64,000 nucleotides of DNA from Candidatus Poseidoniia archaeon (GCA_030748895.1 JASMLC010000003.1:78594-142593); one strand, 5' to 3'. Shown: positions 7,370-33,752, counted from the stretch's first letter. Numbers and translations are program-made. Notes: a model not told the origin generated them from the sequence alone.

Positions 7370-10300
7370 TCAGAGCGGGTTGCCGTCTTCGTCGCAGGGA
7401 ACTTCTTCGCCCGAGTCGGGGTCGATGTAATAGAACGAGCCATCCTCGTCCTCGTAGATTTCGACCTCGTACTCCTCTTCGTCATCGCCCAGCTCGTCAT
7501 CGTAGTCGTCAGTAAAGCCGAAGTCCTCATCAGTGGAAGCCGCGGCACCGCTACCGCTCAGGAGGTCCATCAGGCTGCTCTCCTCCCGCGCCTCCTCGCG
7601 CGCGGTGCGGACAGACTCGATAGCCTCAATCTTGCGCTGGGTTGACTCGTATGCCTCGGTAATCTCAGTCAGCTTGGAGAACTGCTCGTCGCGCTCCATC
7701 TTGAGCACGTACGCCAGCTGTTCCTCAATCTGCCCCAGTTCGGTGCGAGTGTCGACCAGTCGGGTCAGCGTGCCGTGGAACCGGTTGGCGAGGAGCTCCA
7801 TGTCTGGCTCAGCCAGGTCAAGCTTGAGCTGTTCCTCTGCCGCAGTTTCGGCTGCCTCGGCAGCCTCGAGTTCGGCTAGCCGCTCTGTGGCGGCAATCTG
7901 CTGGGCCTTGACCAGGATTTCGTTGAAGGCCGAAAGGTGGGCCTCCAGCTTGGTCGCGACGCGGGATGCGTCGTAAGCTGCTACCTCGAGCAGTTCCTCG
8001 CGACCCTTGGAGGTCTCAAGGCGCTGTTCGACATCTGACAGACGGGCTCTTTCTTGCTTGTTCATACTTTCACCAGTAAATCCGCTCGTGCGGACGTTAT
8101 ACGCTGCAGCAGCCATCAGGAGGCCGAGAACCAGTCCGCCCACCAGGACGATGAAACTGCGGTTCCAATTATCTGCCACCATCACACTCTGGGCTTCCGC
8201 CACCACCACTTCCTGAGCCACAGTGGTAGTCACCGCGCCAGAGTTGTCAACTGCGGTGACCTGCACCTGATAGGTCCCGGGCGCCGCATAGGCGTGCTTC
8301 AGGTTCAGCGTGCTCTGACCAGTCAGGTCACTGCCGCTGAAGGAAATTTGCGAGCCATCGCCGAAGTCAACCACCAGCATCGCGATGCTGCCGTCGTCAT
8401 CGCTCGGGACTGCCAGAACAAACTCGACTGTGTGCTCCTCGACCACGCTGACGGTGTTGCCGTCAATCGTGATGCCCTCATCCTCGCTCACCGACGGTGC
8501 CGGGACCAAAGGCGCGCTGTTGGCTGCAGTTACCGCCGCGCTAAAGCTCGTGACCTGCCCGAGGCCATCGGTGGCGGTTAGCGAGATTGTGTAGTCACCT
8601 GCCGCCGCATAGGTGTAGTCCTGCGAGGCGCCGCCGTCAGCCATGCTGCTGCCGTCGCCAAAGTCCCAGTCAATCGTTAGCGCGCCGTCGGCGCCGCTCA
8701 GCGTAAAGGTGTGCGCGGAGCCAGCCAGGGTGCCGCCCGTGCTGAGCGACCAGCCTGAGGTGTCCTGCGGCAGGTTGGGAGTAATCGAAATCGCCTGCGA
8801 AGCGCCGGTGCCGTCAATCGACGGCGTGACCGTGAAGCCAGCGGAGCTCGCCGCGGTCGCGCCAGCCGGGACCATGACCGTCATCTGGACCGTCTGGAAG
8901 CCGCCCTTGGCGATGCGGAAGCTGGTCGTCGAGAAGCGCAGGTTGTCGTGGCCGGTGGTGACCACGATGGCGTAGTTGGTCGCGACGCTGCCGGTGTTGG
9001 TCACCGTGACGACCGTGGTCGCCGAGGTGCCGGGGTTGAGCAGGAAGCTGTCGTCAGCCGCGCTCACGCCCGCGCTACGCGCGTCGCTGGCGATGTCGAG
9101 CGTCGCGCTCGCGCTGTCATCGTCGGTGGCAACCGATATTGAGTAGCTGCTGCCAGCCGGAGTATCTTCGGGGACGCTAATCCAGACGCGGAAGTCGAAG
9201 CTGGCTCCCGCGGCGATTACACCGGTAGAGGTGGTATTCAGCGTCGCCCAGCCATTGGCCTCGCTGTTGCCGCTGATGTCGAAGCTGTAGCTCGCGTCGC
9301 CGTTACCGGTGCTGGTGACGGTGCCCGAAATCTGGAAAGAATCACCGGGATACGCTGCTGAAACTGCACCGAGCGAGATGCTCGAGCCAGTCACCAGCCC
9401 GGCGCTGCTGTCGGCCGAGTCGCTGTCGGAAGCGCCGCCGGTCGCGGTGAGCGTTACCGTGTCGCCCGCACCGTGCGCTGCGCCTGCGGGGACGTCGTGC
9501 GTGACCGTAACTAGCCGCACCTCGCCCATGCCGAGGCTCATCCCGCTGGAGGAAGCATCTGAAGCCCAGCTGCTGCTGGTCGAGATTGAGTAAGTATTGT
9601 CATAGTTGCCAGTATTCTGCACCGTGAAGGTGTGGGTCGTCGAACTGCCCGGTGCACCTTCCTGCGCGCTGGAGACTGCGGTAACTGCGACACCCTGCAC
9701 TAGCCCGACTGAGTAGCCCATGCTGTGCGAATCGGTCGCGGTGCCGTCGTTCTGCGAGGCGATATCGACGTCAAGCTGGTTCATAACGCCGTAGGTCAGG
9801 AAGGGGACGGTGATAGTGACGTCGAAGGTGGCCGAGCTGTTGTAGGCAACATCAACCGTCGCCGGGAAGCTAAGGTCCCAGCTTGCAAAGTTGCTGGCGC
9901 CGATGGTGTAAATGTCATCGGCATTGCCGCTGTTAGTAATCGTGAAGGTAACGGTGCGGTCACCCGGCGCGCCTGAGGTGTCAGCCGGCTCATCCATATC
10001 GGCGCCACCCACATAGTCGACGAAGAAGCTCGCAGTGCCGGCATCGCCGGTTGCGGGCACACCGAAACTATCGGTGGCACTGAAGGTAACAGTGCGAGTG
10101 CCACCACGGTCAATGAGGTCTGCCAGGTCAAGCGTGGCTGAATAGGTACCATCACTGTTGTCGTTGAGCGTGAGGATTCCATAGTGCTGGAGGTCGGCCG
10201 AAACTGTAAGTGAATCCCCATCGTCCTCGTTAATGTCACTGGCGCTGGCAGTGAAGGTGTAGGTGTCACCGGCACGTTCTGCAGTCCCGTTGGCCGTGAA

Positions 10301-11866
10301 GGCCGGCGCGTCGTTGACCGCAATCGAGCCGCCCGAAAGCTGTGCGGCGTCGTTGGCACCATTGTTGGCGTCGAAAGCCACGCTGTGGGAGCCCCATGCC
10401 ATAGTGCCATTGTAGGCGTACTCGGCGCCAGCAGCGTCAGCCGGGCTCTCCGAGTCGTTGGTCCGCGAGAGCGAGAAGGAGCTGCCACCGACAGTGACGG
10501 TAATGGTCGAGGCGTTAGTGCCGTTGTACTCGTGGTAGCGGACCGAGAAGTTGAAGTCATTGTTCTCACCGGCACTCGTCGGGGAAACCGAAGAGTCAGT
10601 CAGCCACGGAACATCTGTGCGTACCCAAACCGAGCCCGTCTCCACGTTAGAGGCGTCCATGCTGTCGTTCGAACTGGCAGCGAACACCGTCTTACCAGCT
10701 GCGAATACCTGGCTGTGCTCGTACTGCTCACCGTTGGTATAGTCACCATCACCACCTGCGGAAGCCGTCATGGTGACCTCGGTCCCGCTACAGCCATCAC
10801 TCAGGTCATCGTCACCGACACAGAGCGTAATCGAGCTGGGCGCCTGACCATTGACATCGGTGTAAGTAACGGTCACCGTAGCTGGATTAATCGGCAGCTG
10901 CACCGTTGAAGGCGTCGCCGCAATGGAGCTCAGGACCGGTTCGTCATTAACGCGAGGGCCATCGTAGGTATCGGAGGTTGCGTCGGCCTCCCCGTCAGAA
11001 CTAGTGAAGTAGAAGCTATGCATCCCCAAGCCAAGGTCGTCTGCCTGAGTGAACGAATGCTCGTAAACCTCACCATTAGTGAAATCTCCATCGTTACTGC
11101 TGGAGGAGGACATTACGTAAGCCGGAGTCTCGCCGTCAATGTGCAAAATCACCTCATCACCTGAAGGAGCGTCGCCGTCAAGGTCGGTGTAAGTGACCTG
11201 GAAGCCCACCGAGTCACTCGCGGAGATGGGCCAGTTGGACTCTCCCGGAGAAACCTGGCCGCCCGTGAGAGTCGGGGCGCGGTTCTGCTGGACCAGCGGA
11301 AGGCTCAGGTCCCATGCTTCCTCGTCTCCGACCTGACACTCCTCGGTGGGGCCGACGAGCCAGATACAGCTCATGCTGGCTATGTAGAAGGTGACGTCCC
11401 CATGGTGCTCTGAGGGTGCCCAAGCAAATTCCCACGACAAAGATTCGTCTCCGTCATCTTCGGAGTTGCTCATGATGTAGTCGTAACCATCCGAAGCGGT
11501 AACGAGGGTTGTATCACCCACCTCAATCGAGAAATTGCCGACTGAGTCGCCATTACCGTTGATAACCACCATCTCAAAACCGAACTTGTCGTGACCGCTG
11601 CCACTCACAACTACGTCGATGTCTACGTCCTCGCCGGGCACGTACTCTTCAACGCTGAGCGTTACGTCCAGCGAACTCTCACCATCGTTGGGATTAGCGT
11701 CGGTGTGGCATGCGGACGACGTGCAGTCACCATCGCCCGGCGCGCTGGAATAGCCTGGGTCAAGATCTCCGCCCTGATGTCCCTGCACATAACCTGCAGC
11801 GATGATGACTATCACCGTCACAATCATGATACCTGCCAATAGTTGTTCCGGCCGACGTGTCAGCAT
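7370..11866 (-). CDS. Giant acidic cell-surface protein: N-terminal signal anchor, reeler-like module, multiple PKD/Ig-like repeats, a C-terminal TM helix and a cytoplasmic acidic coiled-coil tail
   Basis: ATG at 11866 has a GGTG RBS 5 nt upstream. TM/signal MLTRRPEQLLAGIMIVTVIVIIAAGY. PKD signatures WDFGDGSSMADGG...YTYAAAGDYTISLTATD and VVDFGDGSQISFSG...HAYAAPGTYQVQVTAVD. Second TM SFIVLVGGLVLGLLMAAAAY, then an E/D-rich coiled coil ending DEDGSFYYIDPDSGEEVPCDEDGNPL. Rich in D, S, T and G. Confidence 0.8.
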   Translation of the reverse strand: MLTRRPEQLLAGIMIVTVIVIIAAGYVQGHQGGDLDPGYSSAPGDGDCTSSACHTDANPNDGESSLDVTLSVEEYVPGEDVDIDVVVSGSGHDKFGFEMVVINGNGDSVGNFSIEVGDTTLVTASDGYDYIMSNSEDDGDESLSWEFAWAPSEHHGDVTFYIASMSCIWLVGPTEECQVGDEEAWDLSLPLVQQNRAPTLTGGQVSPGESNWPISASDSVGFQVTYTDLDGDAPSGDEVILHIDGETPAYVMSSSSSNDGDFTNGEVYEHSFTQADDLGLGMHSFYFTSSDGEADATSDTYDGPRVNDEPVLSSIAATPSTVQLPINPATVTVTYTDVNGQAPSSITLCVGDDDLSDGCSGTEVTMTASAGGDGDYTNGEQYEHSQVFAAGKTVFAASSNDSMDASNVETGSVWVRTDVPWLTDSSVSPTSAGENNDFNFSVRYHEYNGTNASTITVTVGGSSFSLSRTNDSESPADAAGAEYAYNGTMAWGSHSVAFDANNGANDAAQLSGGSIAVNDAPAFTANGTAERAGDTYTFTASASDINEDDGDSLTVSADLQHYGILTLNDNSDGTYSATLDLADLIDRGGTRTVTFSATDSFGVPATGDAGTASFFVDYVGGADMDEPADTSGAPGDRTVTFTITNSGNADDIYTIGASNFASWDLSFPATVDVAYNSSATFDVTITVPFLTYGVMNQLDVDIASQNDGTATDSHSMGYSVGLVQGVAVTAVSSAQEGAPGSSTTHTFTVQNTGNYDNTYSISTSSSWASDASSSGMSLGMGEVRLVTVTHDVPAGAAHGAGDTVTLTATGGASDSDSADSSAGLVTGSSISLGAVSAAYPGDSFQISGTVTSTGNGDASYSFDISGNSEANGWATLNTTSTGVIAAGASFDFRVWISVPEDTPAGSSYSISVATDDDSASATLDIASDARSAGVSAADDSFLLNPGTSATTVVTVTNTGSVATNYAIVVTTGHDNLRFSTTSFRIAKGGFQTVQMTVMVPAGATAASSAGFTVTPSIDGTGASQAISITPNLPQDTSGWSLSTGGTLAGSAHTFTLSGADGALTIDWDFGDGSSMADGGASQDYTYAAAGDYTISLTATDGLGQVTSFSAAVTAANSAPLVPAPSVSEDEGITIDGNTVSVVEEHTVEFVLAVPSDDDGSIAMLVVDFGDGSQISFSGSDLTGQSTLNLKHAYAAPGTYQVQVTAVDNSGAVTTTVAQEVVVAEAQSVMVADNWNRSFIVLVGGLVLGLLMAAAAYNVRTSGFTGESMNKQERARLSDVEQRLETSKGREELLEVAAYDASRVATKLEAHLSAFNEILVKAQQIAATERLAELEAAEAAETAAEEQLKLDLAEPDMELLANRFHGTLTRLVDTRTELGQIEEQLAYVLKMERDEQFSKLTEITEAYESTQRKIEAIESVRTAREEAREESSLMDLLSGSGAAASTDEDFGFTDDYDDELGDDEEEYEVEIYEDEDGSFYYIDPDSGEEVPCDEDGNPL

Positions 11867-11947
11867 ATTTACACCTTTTTTGCGTGAGACGGAAGTCCTC
11901 CGTAATGGGCGGACTGACCTCTCTCGTAGCGCCTTCATACCCAAGGA

Positions 11948-25868: not shown

Positions 25869-26510
25869 ATGGCGCTGAAGCTCGTCGTCTTCGACATGGA
25901 CGGAACGCTGCTGCGCCCCAAGTCGTCGTGGGGGCTGCTGCACGACCATTTCGGCACCGACAATTCCGAGATGCTCGCGCGCTACCTGCGGCACGAGGTG
26001 AGCGACACCGAGTTCGTCGCCACCGACCTTGCGCTCTGGGCCGCCGCCAACGGCGGCCCGGTTGATGCGGCGACGGTCAACGCCGCGCTCGACCGCGCCG
26101 AACTGCTGCCGGGCGCTGCCGAGGCGGTCGCCGGCCTGCACACGACGGGAATCGCGACTGCGATTATCTCGGGCGGCATCGATTATCTCGCCCAAAAGCT
26201 GGCGGCGGAGTGGGGCATGGCGGAAGCGCACGCCAACCCGCTGTTTGACTCGCCCGCGGGGCTGCAGGGCGATATTCGCGTCAGCGGCCACGCCAAGGCG
26301 CCGGTGATGCGCGGCGTGATGGCGCGCCATCACGCCGCGCGCGACGAGGTAGCGGCGGTCGGCGACACGGTGGTTGACCTGGACCTGTTCGCACTCGCGG
26401 GGACCAGCGTCGCAGTCAACACCGACGACGAGCAGGTCATCGCGGCGGCGACGCACCACCTGCCCGACGAGTCACTCGACGGTTTGCTGGAATTATTGCT
26501 TCCGCGTTAG
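25869..26510 (+). CDS. HAD-superfamily hydrolase (phosphoserine phosphatase-like)
   Basis: Motif I VVFDMDGTL. Motif IV GDTVVDLD. 213 aa from the ATG at 25869. Confidence 0.75.
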   Translation: MALKLVVFDMDGTLLRPKSSWGLLHDHFGTDNSEMLARYLRHEVSDTEFVATDLALWAAANGGPVDAATVNAALDRAELLPGAAEAVAGLHTTGIATAIISGGIDYLAQKLAAEWGMAEAHANPLFDSPAGLQGDIRVSGHAKAPVMRGVMARHHAARDEVAAVGDTVVDLDLFALAGTSVAVNTDDEQVIAAATHHLPDESLDGLLELLLPR

Positions 26511-27872
26511 TAGCGCGCCCAGCAACGCCGCCGCGGCCGCGACCAGCGCCAGCCGGTCCAGTCCTGGTGAGGGCGAGATGGCCCAGAGCGCGAGGCTGAA
26601 GCCGGCGAAGAGCAGCGCGCTCTGCTGCACCACGGCGCGGCGCGACTGTCCCACCTGCAGCATCAGCACCAGCACCAGCGTGAAAGTGAGCGACGCGAGG
26701 CGGAACGGCGCCGCGTAGCCGAGCAGCGTCCAGAGGCTGGTGCCGAGCAGCGGCCCGATGGCACGCGACAGTGCGCCCAGCGACTGGCTCAGTCCCAGCA
26801 CTGTCCCCTGCTCCTGCGGCCCCACCGCGCGCGAAATCAGCGCGTTGAGCGTCGGCTGGATGAAGCCACTGCCGAGCGAGAAAATCGTCGTTGCCAGCGC
26901 AACGCCTTCGAGCGTCGTCGTGTAGGGAATATAGCCCATACCGAGCAGCATCAACAACGCCCCCGCGCGCGAGGTCCATGCTTCGCCGCAGCGGCGCACC
27001 GCGGGGCCGACGAGGCCGCCCTGCGTCACGATGCTGACGCCGCCCATGTAGGCGAACAATACCCCGGATAGCCGCACCGGCAGCCCGATGCGCTCCTTCG
27101 AGAACTCGACGAAGGTGCCGAAGATGATTGAGAACGCCAGCAGGTAGAGCGTGAAGATAACCAGCAGCAGTCCCAGCCGCGGCTGGCGCAGGTAGGCGAG
27201 CGTCTCGCGCAGCGCTTCCCCCGGCGAGACGCGCGGCCGCACCATGTGGTCTGACGGGAGCGACTCGGGCAGCCAGCGCCAGGCGCAGAAGAGGTTCAGC
27301 AGCGCCAGCCCCGACCCGAAAAACGCCGGCAGCCAGAAGCCCCACTGCCCCAGCAGCCCGCCCAGCGCCGGCCCGCAGACAAAACCCAGCCCGAAGGCGA
27401 CGCCGAGCATCCCCATCCCCTGCGCGCGCTCCTCGGGCGGCGTCACGTCCGCCACGTAGGCGTACGCGGCGGCGTAGTTGGCGCTCATCACCCCCAGCAT
27501 GATGCGCGACAGGAACAGCACCCCCAGCAGGAGGCGGTTGTCGTCGCTCAATCCCAGCGCCGGGTCGGCCAGCCCGAACACCGCGTAGGCGACCGCCGCA
27601 CCACCGAGGCCGAGCATGATGACCGGCCGGCGGCCGATACGGTCGCTCAGCCGCCCCCACGCCGGAAGGCAGACGAACTGCGCCAGCGAGAAGGCGGTAA
27701 TCAGCAGGCCGACGGTGAGGATTGTACCGCCCAGTTCGGCCACGATGTAATTCAGCAACGGGATGAACATCGCGAACCCCGCAAGGTCGATGAACATCGT
27801 CAGCATCAGGATGTGGAGCGGCTTCACCGGCCCCGCAGGCGAGGGGGTGATATCAGGATGCTGCGCCGGCAA
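26493..27872 (-). CDS. MFS transporter
   Basis: 12-TM topology with MFS signature regions (GRLSDRIGRRPVI, tandem 6+6 helices). Confidence 0.85.
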   Translation of the reverse strand: MPAQHPDITPSPAGPVKPLHILMLTMFIDLAGFAMFIPLLNYIVAELGGTILTVGLLITAFSLAQFVCLPAWGRLSDRIGRRPVIMLGLGGAAVAYAVFGLADPALGLSDDNRLLLGVLFLSRIMLGVMSANYAAAYAYVADVTPPEERAQGMGMLGVAFGLGFVCGPALGGLLGQWGFWLPAFFGSGLALLNLFCAWRWLPESLPSDHMVRPRVSPGEALRETLAYLRQPRLGLLLVIFTLYLLAFSIIFGTFVEFSKERIGLPVRLSGVLFAYMGGVSIVTQGGLVGPAVRRCGEAWTSRAGALLMLLGMGYIPYTTTLEGVALATTIFSLGSGFIQPTLNALISRAVGPQEQGTVLGLSQSLGALSRAIGPLLGTSLWTLLGYAAPFRLASLTFTLVLVLMLQVGQSRRAVVQQSALLFAGFSLALWAISPSPGLDRLALVAAAAALLGALLTRKQ

Positions 27873-27939
27873 AACCGGCGGGATAGAACTTGCTTATATC
27901 CCCATGCGCCCTACCGCGCTCCCCGGGAAGAGGATTATC

Positions 27940-30900
27940 ATGCGCCAACATCTCAGAAATGCACTCGCCGTACTTGCGTCTGTAATCCTGTTTTCACTGG
28001 CGGCCACGACCGTAACGGGCGAGGGGGTGGACCTGACAATTACTTCCCTGGACTACACGAACGACTTTGAGACGGGAGATCCCGTTACCATCGTCCAGAG
28101 CGGGCGGGATGCTGGCACTGTATACAAATACAATTTTTACGACGATGATGATGATAACTGTGGTGAGCAGCGGTGTATCCCCGAGAACTGGTATGCGAAG
28201 AATTTTGACGACGCAATCTGGGATTCAGGAGCCGCACCATTCGGCAATAATGATCAGGCCGGCGCCAGTCCGGGCACGATGTGGCAAACAGAGGATGATC
28301 TGAATGACCACGTCATAATTCGCCATCACTTTACTTACAATGATGAGTATGATGCAATCAGTGCAACCCTGAACCTGGCCTACAATAACTACTATGTCGC
28401 CTACCTGAACGGGAACCTTATTCGAGACTGCTATTCTTACCAAAACAACAACAATTGTTATCAAGGCGACGCTGCATACTGGAACAATGAACTGACCTAT
28501 GACGGAGGCTCCCAGTCAGGGCCTAATCAAGATTGGCTAGTCGAAGGTGACAACGTACTTGCCATACTAGGGAGAGATAGTACTTGGGGTGGGGACCCTG
28601 ATCAGTGGCTTGATGTCGAACTCGTGGTCAACGTCCAGTCCTGGAGGGAAAAACCGATTATCCTCGGTGATGACCTGTGGCTGAGGGTGATTACTTCCAA
28701 CGTGGGAAACGAAACCGCTGAGAACTTCAGTGTCACGCTGGAAATCGAGGGTGAGGAGCTGGGGAATACTACCATAACTGAACTGGCACCTAATGCTACG
28801 GCTGAAAGTGTGTTCTACTGGACTCCGGAGGCGCTCGGAGACTTTAATCTCATGGCTTTTGCTGATGCTGGGCAAGATGTTGGGGAAAGCGATGAGAACA
28901 ACAATACCCTGAATCGCACAATACATATTGGGTTCTATGCGTACAATCTTACTGTGGAATCAAACCATGTTGTAGGAAATGTTACAGAGATTTTCAGGTA
29001 CAATCTAACTGTCACTAACGAAGGCGACGTGGAAGACAATTTCACCCTCTCAGCCTCAGGTATTTTCTACAATTGGGATTGGACCCTTACGCCCAGCGTA
29101 CTTCACCTGCAACCCGGAGAGGGCGGGAATGCGACTCTTGAAATAGTTCCGGACAGAGAGACGTTGGCTGGGAATTACTCCGTGTTCATGAGTGCCAGGT
29201 CTCAGTACTATAGTGAATTCAGGGAGAGCGTAGTCCTGAGTGGCCGGGATAACGAGACAGAATGGTGGTGGGCCCATTCCAATAGCAGTAACACGCGACT
29301 CTACTATTGCACGGACAATGATGAACCCGACGACCCAGATTATGAATGCGATATCAGCTGGACCGAACTGGACTTCGACTATGATGACAACTGGACCCTT
29401 GACCCGGCACCCTTCGGAGATACCGACATAGGCAATGTAGACAACAACACGGTCTGGCAAGGCAACAGTTACGCCTACTTCCGCCATATATTCACTATCG
29501 ATAATATCTCGGCTTACGAAGGGGGCAGCCTGAGCCTGAATACTGCGGCAAACAACTACGGGACCTACTACCTGAACAGCCAGATAGTGTTCAATGACAT
29601 GCGGCAGGGTCAGGGACACACCGCGAATTACTGGAACGATGAAACCCTGTTTGGACCCGAACTCCTGCAGGAGGGCGAAAATATCCTGGCGTCAGTAGTC
29701 CGGGAAACTGGAAACACCCAGTGGTTTGATGAGGAAGTGGTGGCTGTTTTCTCCCAATCCGCAGCCTGGGATTTCGTTCCGCTACCACTGGAACTGGAAA
29801 TGGAGGTACTGCCGACCTATAATTTCTCGCTCTCGGCTCCCATTAGCAACAAGCAGATTCCGGACGACACTAACTACACCTTTCAAGTCTGGATTACCAA
29901 TCTGGGAAACATCGGAGATACCTATGAGATGGTAGTCACACTAAACGACACCTACAACTTCACAATTCTTAACTACACCACCACTGAAATGCACAGCGTT
30001 GTTGGAGAGGGGGCAATAGGTTACATTAATGTCACCATGCGCGACCTTATCGAGGAAGACGCGCGTGGCGGTTTCAATGTTACTGTAATTTCGCGCAACT
30101 CGACCGAACAACTCACTAAATGGATTGAGCTGACTGCAAGGCTCTATATCGTGCCTGACACACTGCGTCCTGTTACGGAGGCTATAACAGATCCACTCGT
30201 CAACTCGACCTCGTTCCAGGTAGGGTGGGAAGTAGCCGAATGGTATCGCCTCGATGAGGTGCTCGGCAACGACACCTTGGTGGTAACCGTCGAATACCGG
30301 CGCGACAACGGCAGCGGCGGCTGGGAGGAGTGGCAGGTGTGGCAGGTCTTCACGGCCGAGGACGAGGACAATCCGCTCGGCAGCGGGAGCGGAACCTTCT
30401 CGCTGGGTGAGGACGGCCGCAGCTTCCAGTTCCGGGCAACCGGCCTCGACGACGACGGGCTGCTGGAGGACAAGACGGGACGCAATGACACCGAGACGCT
30501 GGTCGACACGACCCCGCCGACGGTCGCCGTTTCTAGCGACCCGGCCGGCGCGCTGCTCAGCACCGACTATCTCGAGCTGAGCTGGGAGAGCAGCACCAGC
30601 GACCTTGCTGGCTACGACCTGCAACATTCGTTTGACGGCGGCGCGTGGGAAACGCTGCTGGCCGACTCGCTCGCGACGCGCTACGACTACTACGTCACGG
30701 CCGACGGTAGCCACGCCTTCCGCGTCATCGCGAGCGATGACGCGGGCAACCGCGACGTGCCCGACACGCCCCAAATCAGCATGGTCATCGACACCGCAGC
30801 CCCGACGGGGAGGCTCGCGTCGCTGGAGCCGCTGACCGGCGCGCTGGCGGTGACGTTGCTGCCATCGCAGGACAACGCCAGCAGCTACAACCTGAGCTAC

Positions 30901-31917
30901 GCGCGGATTGCCGAGGAACAGCTGCTGACCGCCATCTGGGCGTGGCAGGAGCTCGGCAGCTGGAACGCAACGCAGTCGCACGACTTCGACGTCGTCGACG
31001 GCTACGCCTACTACTTCCGCTACACGCCGGTCGACGCGGCGGGCAACGTCGCCGACCGCGACTCCCTCAGCGCAACTTACAGCGGCGACGGAAACCCGGG
31101 CCAGTCGTTCCCACTGCTGCTCCCCGCTATCATCCAGCAGGGCGACCTGCAACTCACCGTGCACGCTGGCCTGACGGAACTGGCGCGCAGCAACGCGCCG
31201 GGGATGGTTCTCAGCAACCAATTCTACTACGACACGGCGACCGCCACCATCCAATTCGGGAACGGCGCGAGCGGCTACCTGCCGACCGAGGGGGAGTCTA
31301 TTACCATCGCCTGGAGCGGCTACGACGCCGCGACGCTGGTTGACCGCACCCCGCCCTCCGCCCCGCGCAGCTTCGAGCTGACGCTGGCGGTCGGGGGGAC
31401 GACGGCGCAGCTGCGGTTCCTCTATTCAGCCTCGGACGACGTGGTCGAGTATCGCATCATCCGCAAGGATTCGCCCAACGCTACCGGCGACCTGCTCACG
31501 ACACTCGCCCACAGCGAGGGGTACCTGACGTACGTCGACCAGCCGCCGGGCGAACAGCTCTGGATTTACCGTGTCATAGCGGTCGACCGCAGGGGGCAGC
31601 TCTCGCCAGCGGTCGAGGCGACGGTCGATCTGACACCAGCGGTGCAGCCACTGACGGACGGCGACGATGAAGCGGGGCTGCCGCTGATGACGCTGCTGGC
31701 GGGCGCGGCGCTGGTGCTGGGCGGTGGAGCGGCGGCCTGGTGGTTCACCCGGCCGCCGCCCGTGGCCATCGCGCCGGTGCTGACGAGTGTCGCGTCGCCT
31801 TTCACCGCCGCCGGGGCAGAACTGGCGTGCGACGGATGCGGAACCGTCTTCGCCCCCGACGAGGGGGAGACGCTACACTGCCCCGGCTGCGGGCAGGTCG
31901 GGCCACCCCCTTCCTGA
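27940..31917 (+). CDS. Giant exported adhesin-like protein: signal peptide, two galactose-binding-like jellyroll domains, CARDB-like and NPCBM/DUF11-like repeats, two FN3-like domains, a TM helix and a C-terminal cytoplasmic CxxC...CxxC zinc ribbon
   Basis: ATG at 27940 with GAGGA 8 nt upstream. Signal MRQHLRNALAVLASVILFSLAATTVTG. Jellyroll signatures ATLNLAYNNYYVAYLNGNLI...GDNVLAILGRDSTWGG and SLSLNTAANNYGTYYLNSQIVF...GENILASVVRETGN. CARDB-like ...ENFSVTLEIEGEELGNTTITELAPNATAESVFYWTP...DENNNTL. FN3-like TTPPTVAVSS... and DRTPPSAPRSF.... TM LPLMTLLAGAALVLGGGAAAWWF. Zinc ribbon CDGCGTVFAPDEGETLHCPGCG. Dozens of N-x-S/T sequons. Confidence 0.85.
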   Translation: MRQHLRNALAVLASVILFSLAATTVTGEGVDLTITSLDYTNDFETGDPVTIVQSGRDAGTVYKYNFYDDDDDNCGEQRCIPENWYAKNFDDAIWDSGAAPFGNNDQAGASPGTMWQTEDDLNDHVIIRHHFTYNDEYDAISATLNLAYNNYYVAYLNGNLIRDCYSYQNNNNCYQGDAAYWNNELTYDGGSQSGPNQDWLVEGDNVLAILGRDSTWGGDPDQWLDVELVVNVQSWREKPIILGDDLWLRVITSNVGNETAENFSVTLEIEGEELGNTTITELAPNATAESVFYWTPEALGDFNLMAFADAGQDVGESDENNNTLNRTIHIGFYAYNLTVESNHVVGNVTEIFRYNLTVTNEGDVEDNFTLSASGIFYNWDWTLTPSVLHLQPGEGGNATLEIVPDRETLAGNYSVFMSARSQYYSEFRESVVLSGRDNETEWWWAHSNSSNTRLYYCTDNDEPDDPDYECDISWTELDFDYDDNWTLDPAPFGDTDIGNVDNNTVWQGNSYAYFRHIFTIDNISAYEGGSLSLNTAANNYGTYYLNSQIVFNDMRQGQGHTANYWNDETLFGPELLQEGENILASVVRETGNTQWFDEEVVAVFSQSAAWDFVPLPLELEMEVLPTYNFSLSAPISNKQIPDDTNYTFQVWITNLGNIGDTYEMVVTLNDTYNFTILNYTTTEMHSVVGEGAIGYINVTMRDLIEEDARGGFNVTVISRNSTEQLTKWIELTARLYIVPDTLRPVTEAITDPLVNSTSFQVGWEVAEWYRLDEVLGNDTLVVTVEYRRDNGSGGWEEWQVWQVFTAEDEDNPLGSGSGTFSLGEDGRSFQFRATGLDDDGLLEDKTGRNDTETLVDTTPPTVAVSSDPAGALLSTDYLELSWESSTSDLAGYDLQHSFDGGAWETLLADSLATRYDYYVTADGSHAFRVIASDDAGNRDVPDTPQISMVIDTAAPTGRLASLEPLTGALAVTLLPSQDNASSYNLSYARIAEEQLLTAIWAWQELGSWNATQSHDFDVVDGYAYYFRYTPVDAAGNVADRDSLSATYSGDGNPGQSFPLLLPAIIQQGDLQLTVHAGLTELARSNAPGMVLSNQFYYDTATATIQFGNGASGYLPTEGESITIAWSGYDAATLVDRTPPSAPRSFELTLAVGGTTAQLRFLYSASDDVVEYRIIRKDSPNATGDLLTTLAHSEGYLTYVDQPPGEQLWIYRVIAVDRRGQLSPAVEATVDLTPAVQPLTDGDDEAGLPLMTLLAGAALVLGGGAAAWWFTRPPPVAIAPVLTSVASPFTAAGAELACDGCGTVFAPDEGETLHCPGCGQVGPPPS

Positions 31918-31976: not shown

Positions 31977-32636
31977 ATGTCGCTGGAAGAAATCGATGAC
32001 CTGTTCTACCTACTCGAAAACCCGACGCGGCGGCGCATCCTGAAGCTGCTCTCCCGCGAGCGGCTCTACCCGCTGCAGCTGTCGCGCGAAATTGACGTCA
32101 GCCAGCAGGCGGTGGTCAAGCACCTGCGCATCCTCGAGGAGCACGGCATGGTCGCTTCGCGCGACGAACCGAGCGACAGGGGGCCCAACCGGCGCGTCTA
32201 CCGCGCTTCGCGCTCGGTCTCGCTGCATATCGACGTTGGGCCGACGACTTTCCGTGAGCAGGCGGCACCGATGGCCGAGGATGCCAAACTGAGCGCCGAG
32301 CAGCTGCGCATCCGCAGCGCTATCTCCGAGGCGCGCAATATGGAGCCGAGCGCCCGCATGGACCTGCTGGCGCGCGTCGGCGAGGATTTGCGCCACTCGC
32401 TGCATGCCCACGAGCAGGAGCGGCAGCAGCTGCTGGCGCTAATCAGCGAGTTGAACCGCGAAGTGGGGCGCTGCAGCCGCAAGGCGGACTGCAGCTACGA
32501 CGAGCGGCGGATGCTGCACCACATGCTCCAGAACCCGAGCTACACCATCGAGGGCGCTGCCGCCGCGCTGGGGCTGCGCGAAGCCGAGGTACGGCTGCTG
32601 CTGACGGGGCTAGAGCAGCGCGGGCTCGCCCGCTGA
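31977..32636 (+). CDS. ArsR-family winged-helix transcriptional regulator with a C-terminal coiled-coil/helical extension
   Basis: LENPTRRRILKLLSRERLYPLQLSREIDVSQQAVVKHLRILEEHGMV is a canonical ArsR/SmtB HTH. GGAGGT RBS 6 nt upstream. Confidence 0.7.
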   Translation: MSLEEIDDLFYLLENPTRRRILKLLSRERLYPLQLSREIDVSQQAVVKHLRILEEHGMVASRDEPSDRGPNRRVYRASRSVSLHIDVGPTTFREQAAPMAEDAKLSAEQLRIRSAISEARNMEPSARMDLLARVGEDLRHSLHAHEQERQQLLALISELNREVGRCSRKADCSYDERRMLHHMLQNPSYTIEGAAAALGLREAEVRLLLTGLEQRGLAR

Positions 32637-32664: not shown

Positions 32665-33165
32665 ATGATGCGAATTCTCTACGGCACGCTGGTGCTGTTA
32701 CTCGTCGCCACGGCGGCCCACGGCGAGGCAACCTACCGCGTCGACGGACTGCCGCTCGACTACGCCCTCGGCGCGACCTACGAGGTCACGCTGACGGTGA
32801 GCGACCCCGACGCGGTGACGGGGGTCACAATCACGACCACTAACGGCTCGCTCTCCGCCGCGGATGAGTTCGGCGAAGGCGAGGCACACGACCTGCAATT
32901 CGGCGCGGACGACGGCTGGAGCTTCTTCTGGCAGGCGCCCGCCGACGTACACGAACTGGGCAAGGGCGAGGCGGAATTCAGCGTCACTTTCGCCGGCGAG
33001 GATGACTCGACCTGGGCCAGCTACGAAACGGTCGTGCGGCCGCCGCCAATCCACGCCGAGGATGAGGAAGCGACGCCCGTTTGGGCGCTGCAACTGGCAT
33101 GGGGCGGCGTCGCGCTGACTGGGATCCTGGCACTGGCTGCGGCATTCGTGCTGCGGCGCGGCTGA
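32665..33165 (+). CDS. Small exported protein with a C-terminal TM anchor
   Basis: Signal peptide MMRILYGTLVLLLVATAAHGEA. Acidic beta-rich body. C-terminal TM WGGVALTGILALAAAFVLRRG. Confidence 0.5.
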   Translation: MMRILYGTLVLLLVATAAHGEATYRVDGLPLDYALGATYEVTLTVSDPDAVTGVTITTTNGSLSAADEFGEGEAHDLQFGADDGWSFFWQAPADVHELGKGEAEFSVTFAGEDDSTWASYETVVRPPPIHAEDEEATPVWALQLAWGGVALTGILALAAAFVLRRG

Positions 33166-33251
33166 AGCGGCTATCGTCGGAGACGCGGGCGCAACGTATA
33201 TATCGGGCGACAAACGTCCCTGATACCTGCCTACGGGCAGAGGACATAACC

Positions 33252-33752
33252 ATGAAACGCAGAATTGTGAACGATGAGCAGGCGGTTTCACCTGTGATTG
33301 CGGTCATCCTGATGGTCGCAATTACGGTCGTGCTAGCCGCTGTGCTGTATGTGTGGGCCTCCAGCTTCCTGGGTGGCACCACTAAGAACGCGCCGACCGG
33401 CAGCACCATGGCAACCAAGACCTCAGGGAACGTCTGGATCGTAGAAATGATCAAGCTGAACCCGCAAGTCTCGGTGAACTCGGTCCACTGGTACCTGCTG
33501 GACATCCAGGGCAACACTGTCAGTGATGGCCTGGTATCGGCAGTCTACGGCTATTATGCCGGTGAGGGCAAGGGCGTCATCTTCGTCGACAACGACTTCG
33601 ATGGTAAGCTGAGCCCGGGCGACAAGTTCGAGGTCCACCCCGGTGAATCCGGCTCAGACCTCGAGAACACGAACTCGGTAGACGACTACAAGTTCCGTCT
33701 CAAGTTCGAGCCCACCGGCGACACCATCGGCTACGACACCCCGCTGTCATAG
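33252..33752 (+). CDS. Archaeal type IV pilin (class III signal peptide, DUF1628-type N-terminus)
   Basis: MKRRIVNDEQA|VSPVIAVILMVAITVVLAAVLYVW matches the prepilin-peptidase (PibD/FlaK) processing consensus K/R...G/A|VSPVI plus a hydrophobic helix. Confidence 0.8.
   Translation: MKRRIVNDEQAVSPVIAVILMVAITVVLAAVLYVWASSFLGGTTKNAPTGSTMATKTSGNVWIVEMIKLNPQVSVNSVHWYLLDIQGNTVSDGLVSAVYGYYAGEGKGVIFVDNDFDGKLSPGDKFEVHPGESGSDLENTNSVDDYKFRLKFEPTGDTIGYDTPLS

Follow-up and report, generated by a model that had tools for sequence, protein, structure and literature searches.

A mosaic surface-protein gene of Candidatus Poseidoniia with a head probably drawn from a lower-GC gene pool

Archaea of Marine Groups II and III (MGII/MGIII, Candidatus Poseidoniia) are abundant and uncultured, and their cell surface is poorly understood. 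Here we describe one of the few large, conserved and syntenic surface proteins of this group. The gene lies in a stretch of 64,000 nucleotides (nt) from a Candidatus Poseidoniia archaeon (GCA_030748895.1 JASMLC010000003.1:78594-142593), which we call the window; positions are counted from its first letter. The 5′ part of the gene is much poorer in GC than the 3′ part, in one unbroken reading frame. We show that the gene is a recombinant mosaic, and we consider it probable that its GC-poor head came from a lower-GC gene pool.

The gene and its composition step

The gene and its parts are listed below, all on the + strand. GC3 is the GC content at third codon positions, the lettered blocks are the segments compared among relatives, and contigs and proteins of relatives carry our own numbers (L and P, respectively). 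Ig stands for immunoglobulin.

27940..31917 (+): whole gene, a 1325-amino-acid cell-surface protein, conserved and syntenic in MGII/MGIII archaea
27940..28209 (+): block A1, codons 1-90, signal peptide and the first part of jellyroll 1, GC3 0.60
28210..28719 (+): block A2, codons 91-260, jellyroll 1 (J1), GC3 0.55
28621..28914 (+): CARDB domain (Pfam PF07705), amino acids 228-325, a CARDB profile match above the gathering score
28747..29739 (+): block B, codons ~270-600, CARDB/Ig domains, linker and jellyroll 2 (J2), alpha-type, GC3 0.48-0.64
29767..30249 (+): block C, codons 610-770, Ig-like domain and the first part of the stalk, GC3 0.57
30220..30279 (+): composition junction, codons ~761-780, GC3 rising from 0.55 to 0.90, at the family-invariant motif W768 Y769 ... 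G776 N777 D778 T779
30262..30519 (+): block D1, codons 775-860, in a GC-rich version (GC3 0.86-0.91) in the window, L007 and L008
30520..31644 (+): blocks D2 and D3, FN3/Ig-like stalk of host-like composition, GC3 0.82-0.89
31672..31740 (+): C-terminal transmembrane (TM) helix, amino acids ~1245-1267, Kyte-Doolittle windows >1.6
31828..31890 (+): cytoplasmic Cys4 zinc-ribbon motif, C1297, C1300, C1314 and C1317 (CxxC...CxxC), with a presumed metal-binding role

The open reading frame runs from 27763 to 31917 (+), and the ATG at 27940 is the start in all homologues (MRQ/MRK...), in agreement with the gene limits proposed in a first-pass annotation of this DNA. That annotation had also described a low-GC 5′ part and a high-GC 3′ part in a single frame, and had proposed sliding GC, GC3 and codon-usage plots as a check. 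These plots bear the description out. The window as a whole is 65.4% GC and the flanks of the gene range from 0.65 to 0.75. Within the gene, total GC (300-nt windows) stays at 0.46-0.52 over ~28050-30150, and beyond ~30300 it is 0.63-0.72 as far as the stop codon. GC3 is 0.575 over codons 1-772 versus 0.879 over codons 773-1325, with the best changepoint at nt 30256 (codon ~772) and a log-likelihood ratio of 76.7; in 5000 permutations of codon order this ratio averaged 2.6 and reached at most 10.4. The step is therefore real and far beyond chance. It is also sharp, with GC3 values of 0.55, 0.70 and 0.90 in codons 741-760, 761-780 and 781-800, respectively. For comparison, GC3 is 0.76-0.95 in the flanking genes and 0.64-0.78 in the genes of a nearby pilus locus.

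Controlling for amino-acid composition does not make GC3 uniform. The fraction of G/C-ending codons is lower in the 5′ part for 18 of the 18 degenerate amino acids, therefore amino-acid composition is not the cause of the step, and we reject it as a candidate. In the same vein, the observed GC3 of the head is 0.556, against 0.871 expected for its own amino acids under the codon preferences of the 3′ part.

The order of parts in the protein is signal peptide, J1, two CARDB/Ig domains, J2, an Ig domain, a string of FN3-like domains, the TM helix and the zinc ribbon. The hydrophobic N terminus is predicted to be a Sec-type signal peptide. J1 and J2 are plausibly lectin-like jellyrolls that may resemble galactose-binding domains, such as the N-terminal sugar-binding domain of GH2 enzymes and CBMs, with putative carbohydrate binding. 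An AlphaFold model of the stalk (predicted local distance difference test, pLDDT, 79) matches the fibronectin FN3 string Fn7B89 in Foldseek (E 1.5e-13), the family profile matches FN3 domains of titin (E 3.3e-12) and chitinase A1 (E 2.8e-4) in the PDB, and PF00041 is precomputed on the homologues P0006 and P0011. All four zinc-ribbon cysteines are invariant in 25/25 aligned family members. The domain layout of the first-pass annotation is thus broadly confirmed, as is its assignment of the low-GC part to a distal lectin-like/Ig head and of the high-GC part to an FN3-like stalk, TM anchor and zinc ribbon. In the structural model the junction falls within the first FN3-like domain, off the domain boundary.

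Twenty-six of the 33 N-x-S/T sequons lie in the head. The features of S-layer and other major surface glycoproteins are all present (a signal peptide, many sequons and a C-terminal anchor), and these are necessary but not specific. Going by sequence, the product could fairly be described as a surface-exposed glycoprotein with two lectin-like heads, for which the label adhesin is plausible.

The family comprises proteins of ~1200-1340 amino acids from metagenome-assembled genomes (MAGs) of Candidatus Poseidoniia (MGII/MGIII) and from marine metagenomes. It counts 63 proteins here, and nearly all loci carry a single copy. For placement in MGIIb, MGIIc or MGIII, the literature offers GC ranges only (PMC10480650). 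In the relatives with annotated contigs that we examined (33-66% GC) the gene follows a HAD hydrolase gene. High-GC genomes have an MFS gene between these two genes, and in the high-GC complex the downstream order is an ArsR/HTH_20 regulator, an archaeal pilin and a type-IV-pilus-like locus. The close neighbours in the window are:

26493..27872 (-): divergent MFS transporter gene, the left syntenic anchor, Pfam MFS_1 E 5e-55, GC3 0.90 (host-like)
27892..27903 (+): TATA-like box TTATAT, a putative promoter ~46 nt upstream of the start codon, read in the sequence
31977..32636 (+): ArsR/HTH_20-type regulator gene, the right syntenic anchor in the high-GC complex, Pfam HTH_20 E 3e-13

At fourfold degenerate sites the MFS gene diverges from its relatives by 0.09-0.15, and the regulator gene is syntenic in L001, L004, L005 and L009.

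Two further observations concern this neighbourhood. The archaeal pilin gene (Pilin_N, window 33081-33752) differs between species by 0.02-0.06 at fourfold sites versus 0.16-0.22 for other flank genes, which points to a recent sweep or transfer of this gene. Downstream of the large gene, L002 and L003 carry genes (ECH, HhH-GPD, bPH_2, SHOCT and TiaS) that match the window at 57-63.5 kb, so that ~25 kb (window ~32000-56500) has been inserted or rearranged in the high-GC complex. This stretch holds the regulator, the pilin, a 2OG oxygenase, CTP synthase and a pilus locus with two T2SSF genes and PilB3, among others, and its GC is lower (0.55-0.62 at 36-44 kb).

Alternative alleles and recombination

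The genomes of the window, L004 (GCA_036120465.1), L007 (ETNP2_MAG_80), L008, L051, L009 and L021 form one species complex: their flank genes differ by 0.16-0.22 at fourfold sites, or ~92% nt identity. The first-pass annotation suggested comparing orthologous loci for alternative N-terminal cassettes, and these do exist, with GC-rich versions of head blocks in genomes whose flanks are ~90% identical.

The relationships of the window allele change from block to block. Block A1 is only ~80% nt identical to every relative, with fourfold divergences of 0.26-0.58 to all of them. The adjoining block A2 has 95-96% nt identity to L004/L007/L008; a GC-rich version of this block (GC3 0.82), just 48% identical, is found in L047b/P0004, where it is joined to a window-like B2 (98% nt). 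In L001/L009 the ends of the window allele are kept and block B is replaced by a beta-type cassette of GC3 0.80-0.84. Here B2 has 31-32% amino-acid identity to the window, fourfold divergence across B1-B2 is 0.61-0.74, and differences amount to 51% in codons 307-618, where divergence is highest, and 13-18% elsewhere. The same two contigs have a version of block C with a GC3 of 0.74-0.78 and 77-79% nt identity.

Block D1 is a good illustration of how local these exchanges can be. L004, L051, L001 and L009 carry an AT-richer version with a 5-codon insertion. The window and L004 are 97-99% nt identical except in codons ~769-849 (26% vs 6% differences); at fourfold sites the divergence is 0.48 in D1, 0.04-0.10 in A2-C and D2-D3, and 0.31 in A1. 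Because of its AT-richer D1, the GC3 boundary of L004 is displaced by ~100 codons in the 3′ direction. On its left side the D1 tract ends at the family-invariant G776-N-D-T779 motif, adjoining W768-Y769, and the right edges vary, from ~codon 827 (L001/L051) to ~850-860 (L004/L009). Such edges are as expected if conversion tracts are seeded where the sequence is conserved.

For each block, both a GC-poor and a GC-rich version occur on a shared genomic background, and the alternative versions differ by 0.46-0.82 at fourfold sites. The first-pass annotation envisaged a single foreign or rapidly exchanged 2.3-kb cassette joined to a resident stalk at one junction. The part of this that stands is an in-frame recombinant head, with the composition step as a recombination junction inside an intact gene. 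The single junction does not, as there are at least five blocks (A1, A2, B, C and D1) with separate histories and several breakpoints, and the tracts near the junction are conversion-like and ~150-250 nt long.

Formal tests agree with this picture. For eight full-length alleles the pairwise homoplasy index (PHI) is 0.186 versus a permutation mean of 0.334 +/- 0.002 (p<=0.001), and per-block trees are incongruent. The mosaic is also visible at the protein level, e.g. identity to P0005 is 60% over the N half but 87% over the C half, and for P0006 and P0007 the two values are 73% and 40%. With incongruent segments, a significant recombination signal and breakpoints that can be located, this gene is a recombinant mosaic.

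Block B2 (window 29110-29739, essentially J2) is dimorphic. Across 62 family proteins this block falls into two types, alpha and beta, with mean distances of 0.17 within alpha, 0.26 within beta and 0.67 between them (minimum 0.61). The window carries an alpha J2, and L001 and L009 carry beta. Pairs of opposite type can be close in other blocks, e.g. P0020/P0059 (0.13 in A2), P0039/P0059 (0.13 in D) and P0036/P0044 (0.16 in D), hence the dimorphism predates several lineages and is reshuffled among them. The identity of J2 to J1 is 44% for beta and 33% for alpha. Block incongruence, PHI, the GC-rich head blocks and this dimorphism all support the earlier proposal that head modules are exchanged among relatives.

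Two relatives hold tandem copies. L009 opens with the end of another copy, 28 codons long (L009:1-160), and its full-length gene follows after 55 nt. L047 (L047:1-4046) runs from the 3′ 1.7 kb of one copy through a 110-nt spacer into the 5′ 2.2 kb of another, whose head is different. The joints differ: in window coordinates, ~31930 is joined to ~27682 in L047 and ~31946 to ~27925 in L009. The L047 joint duplicates the promoter, and the TATA-like upstream segment is part of the duplicated unit. In the MAG CB27_Tmax.1, L021 consists of the upstream flank and an alpha-type head and ends mid-gene, and L009 consists of the tail, a beta-type gene and the downstream flank; these two contigs could derive from an alpha-beta tandem.

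In many cases, contigs of MAGs and metagenomes stop within the gene. L021 (at window position 30133), L027 and L030 end at codons ~730-810, L037 near codon 540, and L033 and L038-L040 in the first ~340 codons. These breaks are consistent with co-existing divergent alleles that disrupt assembly.

Origin of the GC-poor head

Where did the GC-poor blocks come from? In codon usage, A1, A2, B2 and C best fit the flank genes of mid-GC (57%) genomes, D1-D3 fit the host, and B1 fits a 42% GC type marginally better. The nt distance of A2 and B2 to the mid-GC/L003 alleles is 0.18-0.20, and that of the C and D blocks is 0.40-0.47. A sister lineage provides a clear case of exchange. L003/L011 (66% GC) and L002 (57% GC) differ by 0.36-0.40 at fourfold sites in flank genes and by 0.11-0.13 in blocks B1 and C (L003:3172-7197 vs L002:1289-5278), and in these two blocks L003 shares the GC3 of L002. 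This is a recent intragenic exchange across GC classes.

Our preferred explanation, which we hold to be probable, is that we are dealing with a recombinant mosaic allele of a membrane-anchored surface protein conserved in Poseidoniia, and that its head was acquired from a lower-GC pool by homologous recombination. The stalk, anchor and tail (codons ~780-1325) would be native, with host codon usage. The head (codons 1-~772), with its signal peptide, two jellyroll modules and three CARDB/Ig-like modules, has the codon usage of a ~55-57% GC genome and would have reached, or be kept in, this 65% GC lineage through recombination with a lower-GC gene pool. The exchanges would be in-frame and gene-conversion-like, with tracts of ~150 nt to ~1 kb seeded at short nucleotide-conserved stretches such as the invariant WY...GNDT motif. 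Through block-wise exchange of this kind, GC-poor and GC-rich blocks would come to be combined differently in related genomes. Where the gene and its promoter have been duplicated in tandem, as happens occasionally, the extra copy may serve as a second template, and the alpha and beta types of the second jellyroll would be reshuffled across lineages. We infer that the head was imported and the stalk resident, and that the donor was a mid-GC relative.

Several results weigh against this explanation. Neither scans of genomes, metagenomes and viral contigs nor a protein search with the head alone returned a near-identical head in a lower-GC genome; the protein search for a closer donor found just fragments of known alleles (P0069, P0070 and P0004). 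The closest lower-GC alleles, those of the L002 group, are 61-82% nt identical, and B2 is near saturation at fourfold sites (0.59). The head shows no amelioration either. We polarised synonymous changes on terminal branches by outgroups and expected a strong AT-to-GC excess in the head, as an old passive import predicts; the opposite was seen. Weak-to-strong (W->S, AT to GC) changes per W site are 0.02-0.06 in the head (codons 91-690, 28210-30009) versus 0.17-0.21 in flank genes (p=0.003 and 2e-8), and the implied equilibrium GC3 is 0.33-0.48 versus 0.71-0.76, values to be read with small counts, a possible confounding of polarisation by recombination and an odd L051 branch (flank W->S 1/105) in mind. 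Finally, a milder head-low/tail-high pattern, which could point to a local process rather than import, also occurs in L003 and in a second gene of the window that encodes a surface protein (7370..11944); in the latter GC3 is 0.56-0.76 over the first ~800 codons and 0.80-0.87 over codons 800-1100. It is mainly the unexplained lack of amelioration that keeps our confidence in the import of the head from being higher.

The second surface protein (window 7370-11944, -) has 1524 amino acids, with PKD and Ig-like domains, a TM helix and an acidic coiled-coil tail.

Two candidate sources were considered and rejected. The mid-GC group L002/L010/L012 is not a recent donor, with fourfold divergences of 0.35-0.59 and only 61-67% nt identity in B1 and C, and for a viral vector the scan of viral contigs showed no relatives. 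From codon usage, only the compositional class of a donor could be deduced. The first-pass annotation proposed a foreign or rapidly exchanged head, and the foreign origin survives as far as its codon usage fits ~57% GC; against it stand the missing donor, the saturation of the nearest alleles and the lack of amelioration.

The main rival dispenses with import altogether. The head would never have been foreign; instead, the force that maintains GC3, be it selection or biased gene conversion, would be ineffective there, owing to balancing or diversifying selection with allele classes or to some local cause, and synonymous sites would drift to an AT-biased mutational equilibrium. The low equilibrium GC3 and the W->S rates 3-10x below those of flank genes speak for such relaxed drive, and so do the same, milder polarity in the L003 lineage and the PKD protein and the failure to locate a donor. 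Gradual decay is not expected to produce a step over ~40 codons at a conserved motif, however, nor to shift it by ~100 codons in an allele that is 97-99% identical, at a point where divergence jumps as well. The species complex also retains GC-rich versions of these blocks, and a fall from 0.88 to 0.55 needs >1 substitution per site where head alleles differ between species by 0.04-0.21 at fourfold sites. The fact that A2 and B2 are nearer to mid-GC lineages than C and D are is a further point against it. Overall we judge endogenous decay to be rather unlikely.

The remaining rivals fare worse. Codon selection tied to translation or secretion, or an amino-acid effect by which Asn/Tyr/Asp-rich beta-sandwich heads prefer A/T-ending codons, gains some appeal from the Asn content of the head (9.6% vs 2.5%) and from its share of the sequons. 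Yet the shift occurs within every amino acid, the boundary moves between near-identical alleles, and the same domains exist at GC3 0.80-0.84 in the species complex. Orthologues in 33-43% GC genomes are compositionally uniform, with heads that match their own genome and are not AT-shifted, and in mid-GC genomes (55-57%; L002, L010, L012 and L048-50) GC3 is even throughout at ~0.6; the step is thus not a property of the domain as such. The GC-rich head blocks and the uniform low-GC orthologues rule out a domain-intrinsic codon constraint, and the wider codon-selection account is highly improbable. A programmed system acting on the head, such as silent-cassette conversion of the pilE/pilS type, a diversity-generating retroelement or an invertible shufflon, could draw on the second tandem copy with a different head, a potential conversion template, in two relatives. 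Against this, tblastn and blastn found no second copy or fragment of the gene in the 64-kb window, the head has no long direct or inverted repeats or template repeats around it (short, chance-level ones only), and no recombinase or reverse-transcriptase family occurs among the neighbour genes examined. The tandem copies are full-length genes, and the second copy in L047 retains its promoter region. We regard a programmed system as extremely improbable, and the switching suggested by the first-pass annotation is not supported in this sense: silent cassettes, invertible segments, template repeats and flanking inverted repeats were all sought within the window, and none was found. The variation is between genomes in the population, plus the tandem duplicates in two relatives. 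Lastly, the contig might mis-join the gene versions of two organisms at ~30.2 kb, and the frequent contig ends in this gene do show that assemblers find it difficult. Still, the same in-frame junction, with GC3 of 0.55 and then ~0.87, occurs in separately assembled contigs, namely L007 and L046, L005 (Logan SRR5007141) and L008, and the fragment P0069; in L004 and L051 the step is displaced 3′. The long contigs L004 and L005 have host-like flanks on both sides (MFS upstream, the HTH gene downstream), and head and stalk of the window are equally close to L004/L007 at synonymous sites (0.04-0.10). Since the junction recurs in at least three other datasets from other projects, chimeric assembly is not the explanation, and we treat its chances as practically negligible.

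How, then, could a head acquired from a lower-GC pool by recombination stay GC-poor? At fourfold sites, the between-species divergence of blocks A2 and B1 (0.04-0.09) is below that of the flanks (0.16-0.20). Continual re-import or homogenisation from the lower-GC pool, and a locally weaker fixation bias in favour of GC, both fit the lack of amelioration. A tentative extension of our explanation, which is possible rather than likely, is that the head is part of a 'public' pool of cassettes, the alpha/beta dimorphism included, which is shared among Poseidoniia of very different GC content and continually re-imported into high-GC genomes, from source to sink. If true, this would explain the unameliorated codon usage, the lower divergence of the head than of the flanks and the assembly breaks. 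It would also make the gene a natural marker of gene flow between lineages, and probably of virus-host or particle-binding specificity.

Significance and comparison with known systems

The exposed head of this protein is exchanged block-wise even between lineages that are at least 10% apart in genome GC. The likely selective reason would be a diversified, exposed surface for ligand binding or virus reception under frequency-dependent selection, which makes the protein a candidate virus receptor or a candidate determinant of particle or glycan binding. For metagenomics, the locus can be used to track strain-level diversity and gene flow, and its mosaicism would explain why MAG contigs so frequently break here. 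More generally, an imported segment that visibly fails to ameliorate bears on the question of what maintains high GC in prokaryotic genomes.

The closest archaeal parallel is the cell-wall island of Haloquadratum walsbyi, where homologous recombination diversifies surface glycoproteins, presumably against viruses (PMC4535781). There, significant PHI values, within-gene breakpoints and a ~250-bp event in the S-layer gene were read by the authors as virus escape (PMC4535781). Both are cases of population-level variation of archaeal surface glycoproteins through homologous recombination. The Haloquadratum island involves many genes, one species and uniform GC, whereas here a single syntenic core gene is mosaic inside its frame, its pieces are ~0.3 GC3 off the host, and one of its modules has two ancient types across MGII/MGIII.

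Mosaic surface and adhesin genes are familiar from naturally recombining bacteria, e.g. opa, porB and tbpB of Neisseria, pspA and pbp of pneumococci and the intimin gene eae. A related example of such bacterial genes has been described (PMC3082526). The likeness is close: diverged alleles recombine in frame, the exposed part varies and the anchor is conserved, breakpoints lie in conserved stretches, and the junctions show steps in composition or divergence. The bacterial mosaics are mostly found in host-associated species and in unrelated families, and their donors are usually identifiable sister species. Here, in contrast, the donor is unsampled and the import is not ameliorating.

Within the same order, an 'overwrite' of the single-copy proteorhodopsin gene by a horizontally transferred copy has been reported for Ca. 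Poseidoniales (Rinke et al. 2018, PMC6461757). In both cases a resident gene is replaced in place by the homologue of another lineage. The proteorhodopsin replacement concerns the whole gene, unlike the partial, block-wise and in-frame replacement described here, in which several alleles coexist.

Silent-cassette antigenic variation, as in pilE/pilS of Neisseria and vlsE of Borrelia, is similar in that conversion-like tracts alter the exposed part of a protein, and a second copy (the L009 and L047 tandems) is a potential template. It differs in that promoterless cassettes are absent from the window, the variation observed lies between genomes, and each tandem copy is a complete gene.

In summary, exposed surface proteins are well known to become mosaic by recombination, and the mechanism here is of that kind, in a group of uncultured archaea. 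What is particular to this case is that the mosaic lies in one conserved core gene, with an offset of ~0.3 GC3, an ancient dimorphism and no amelioration.

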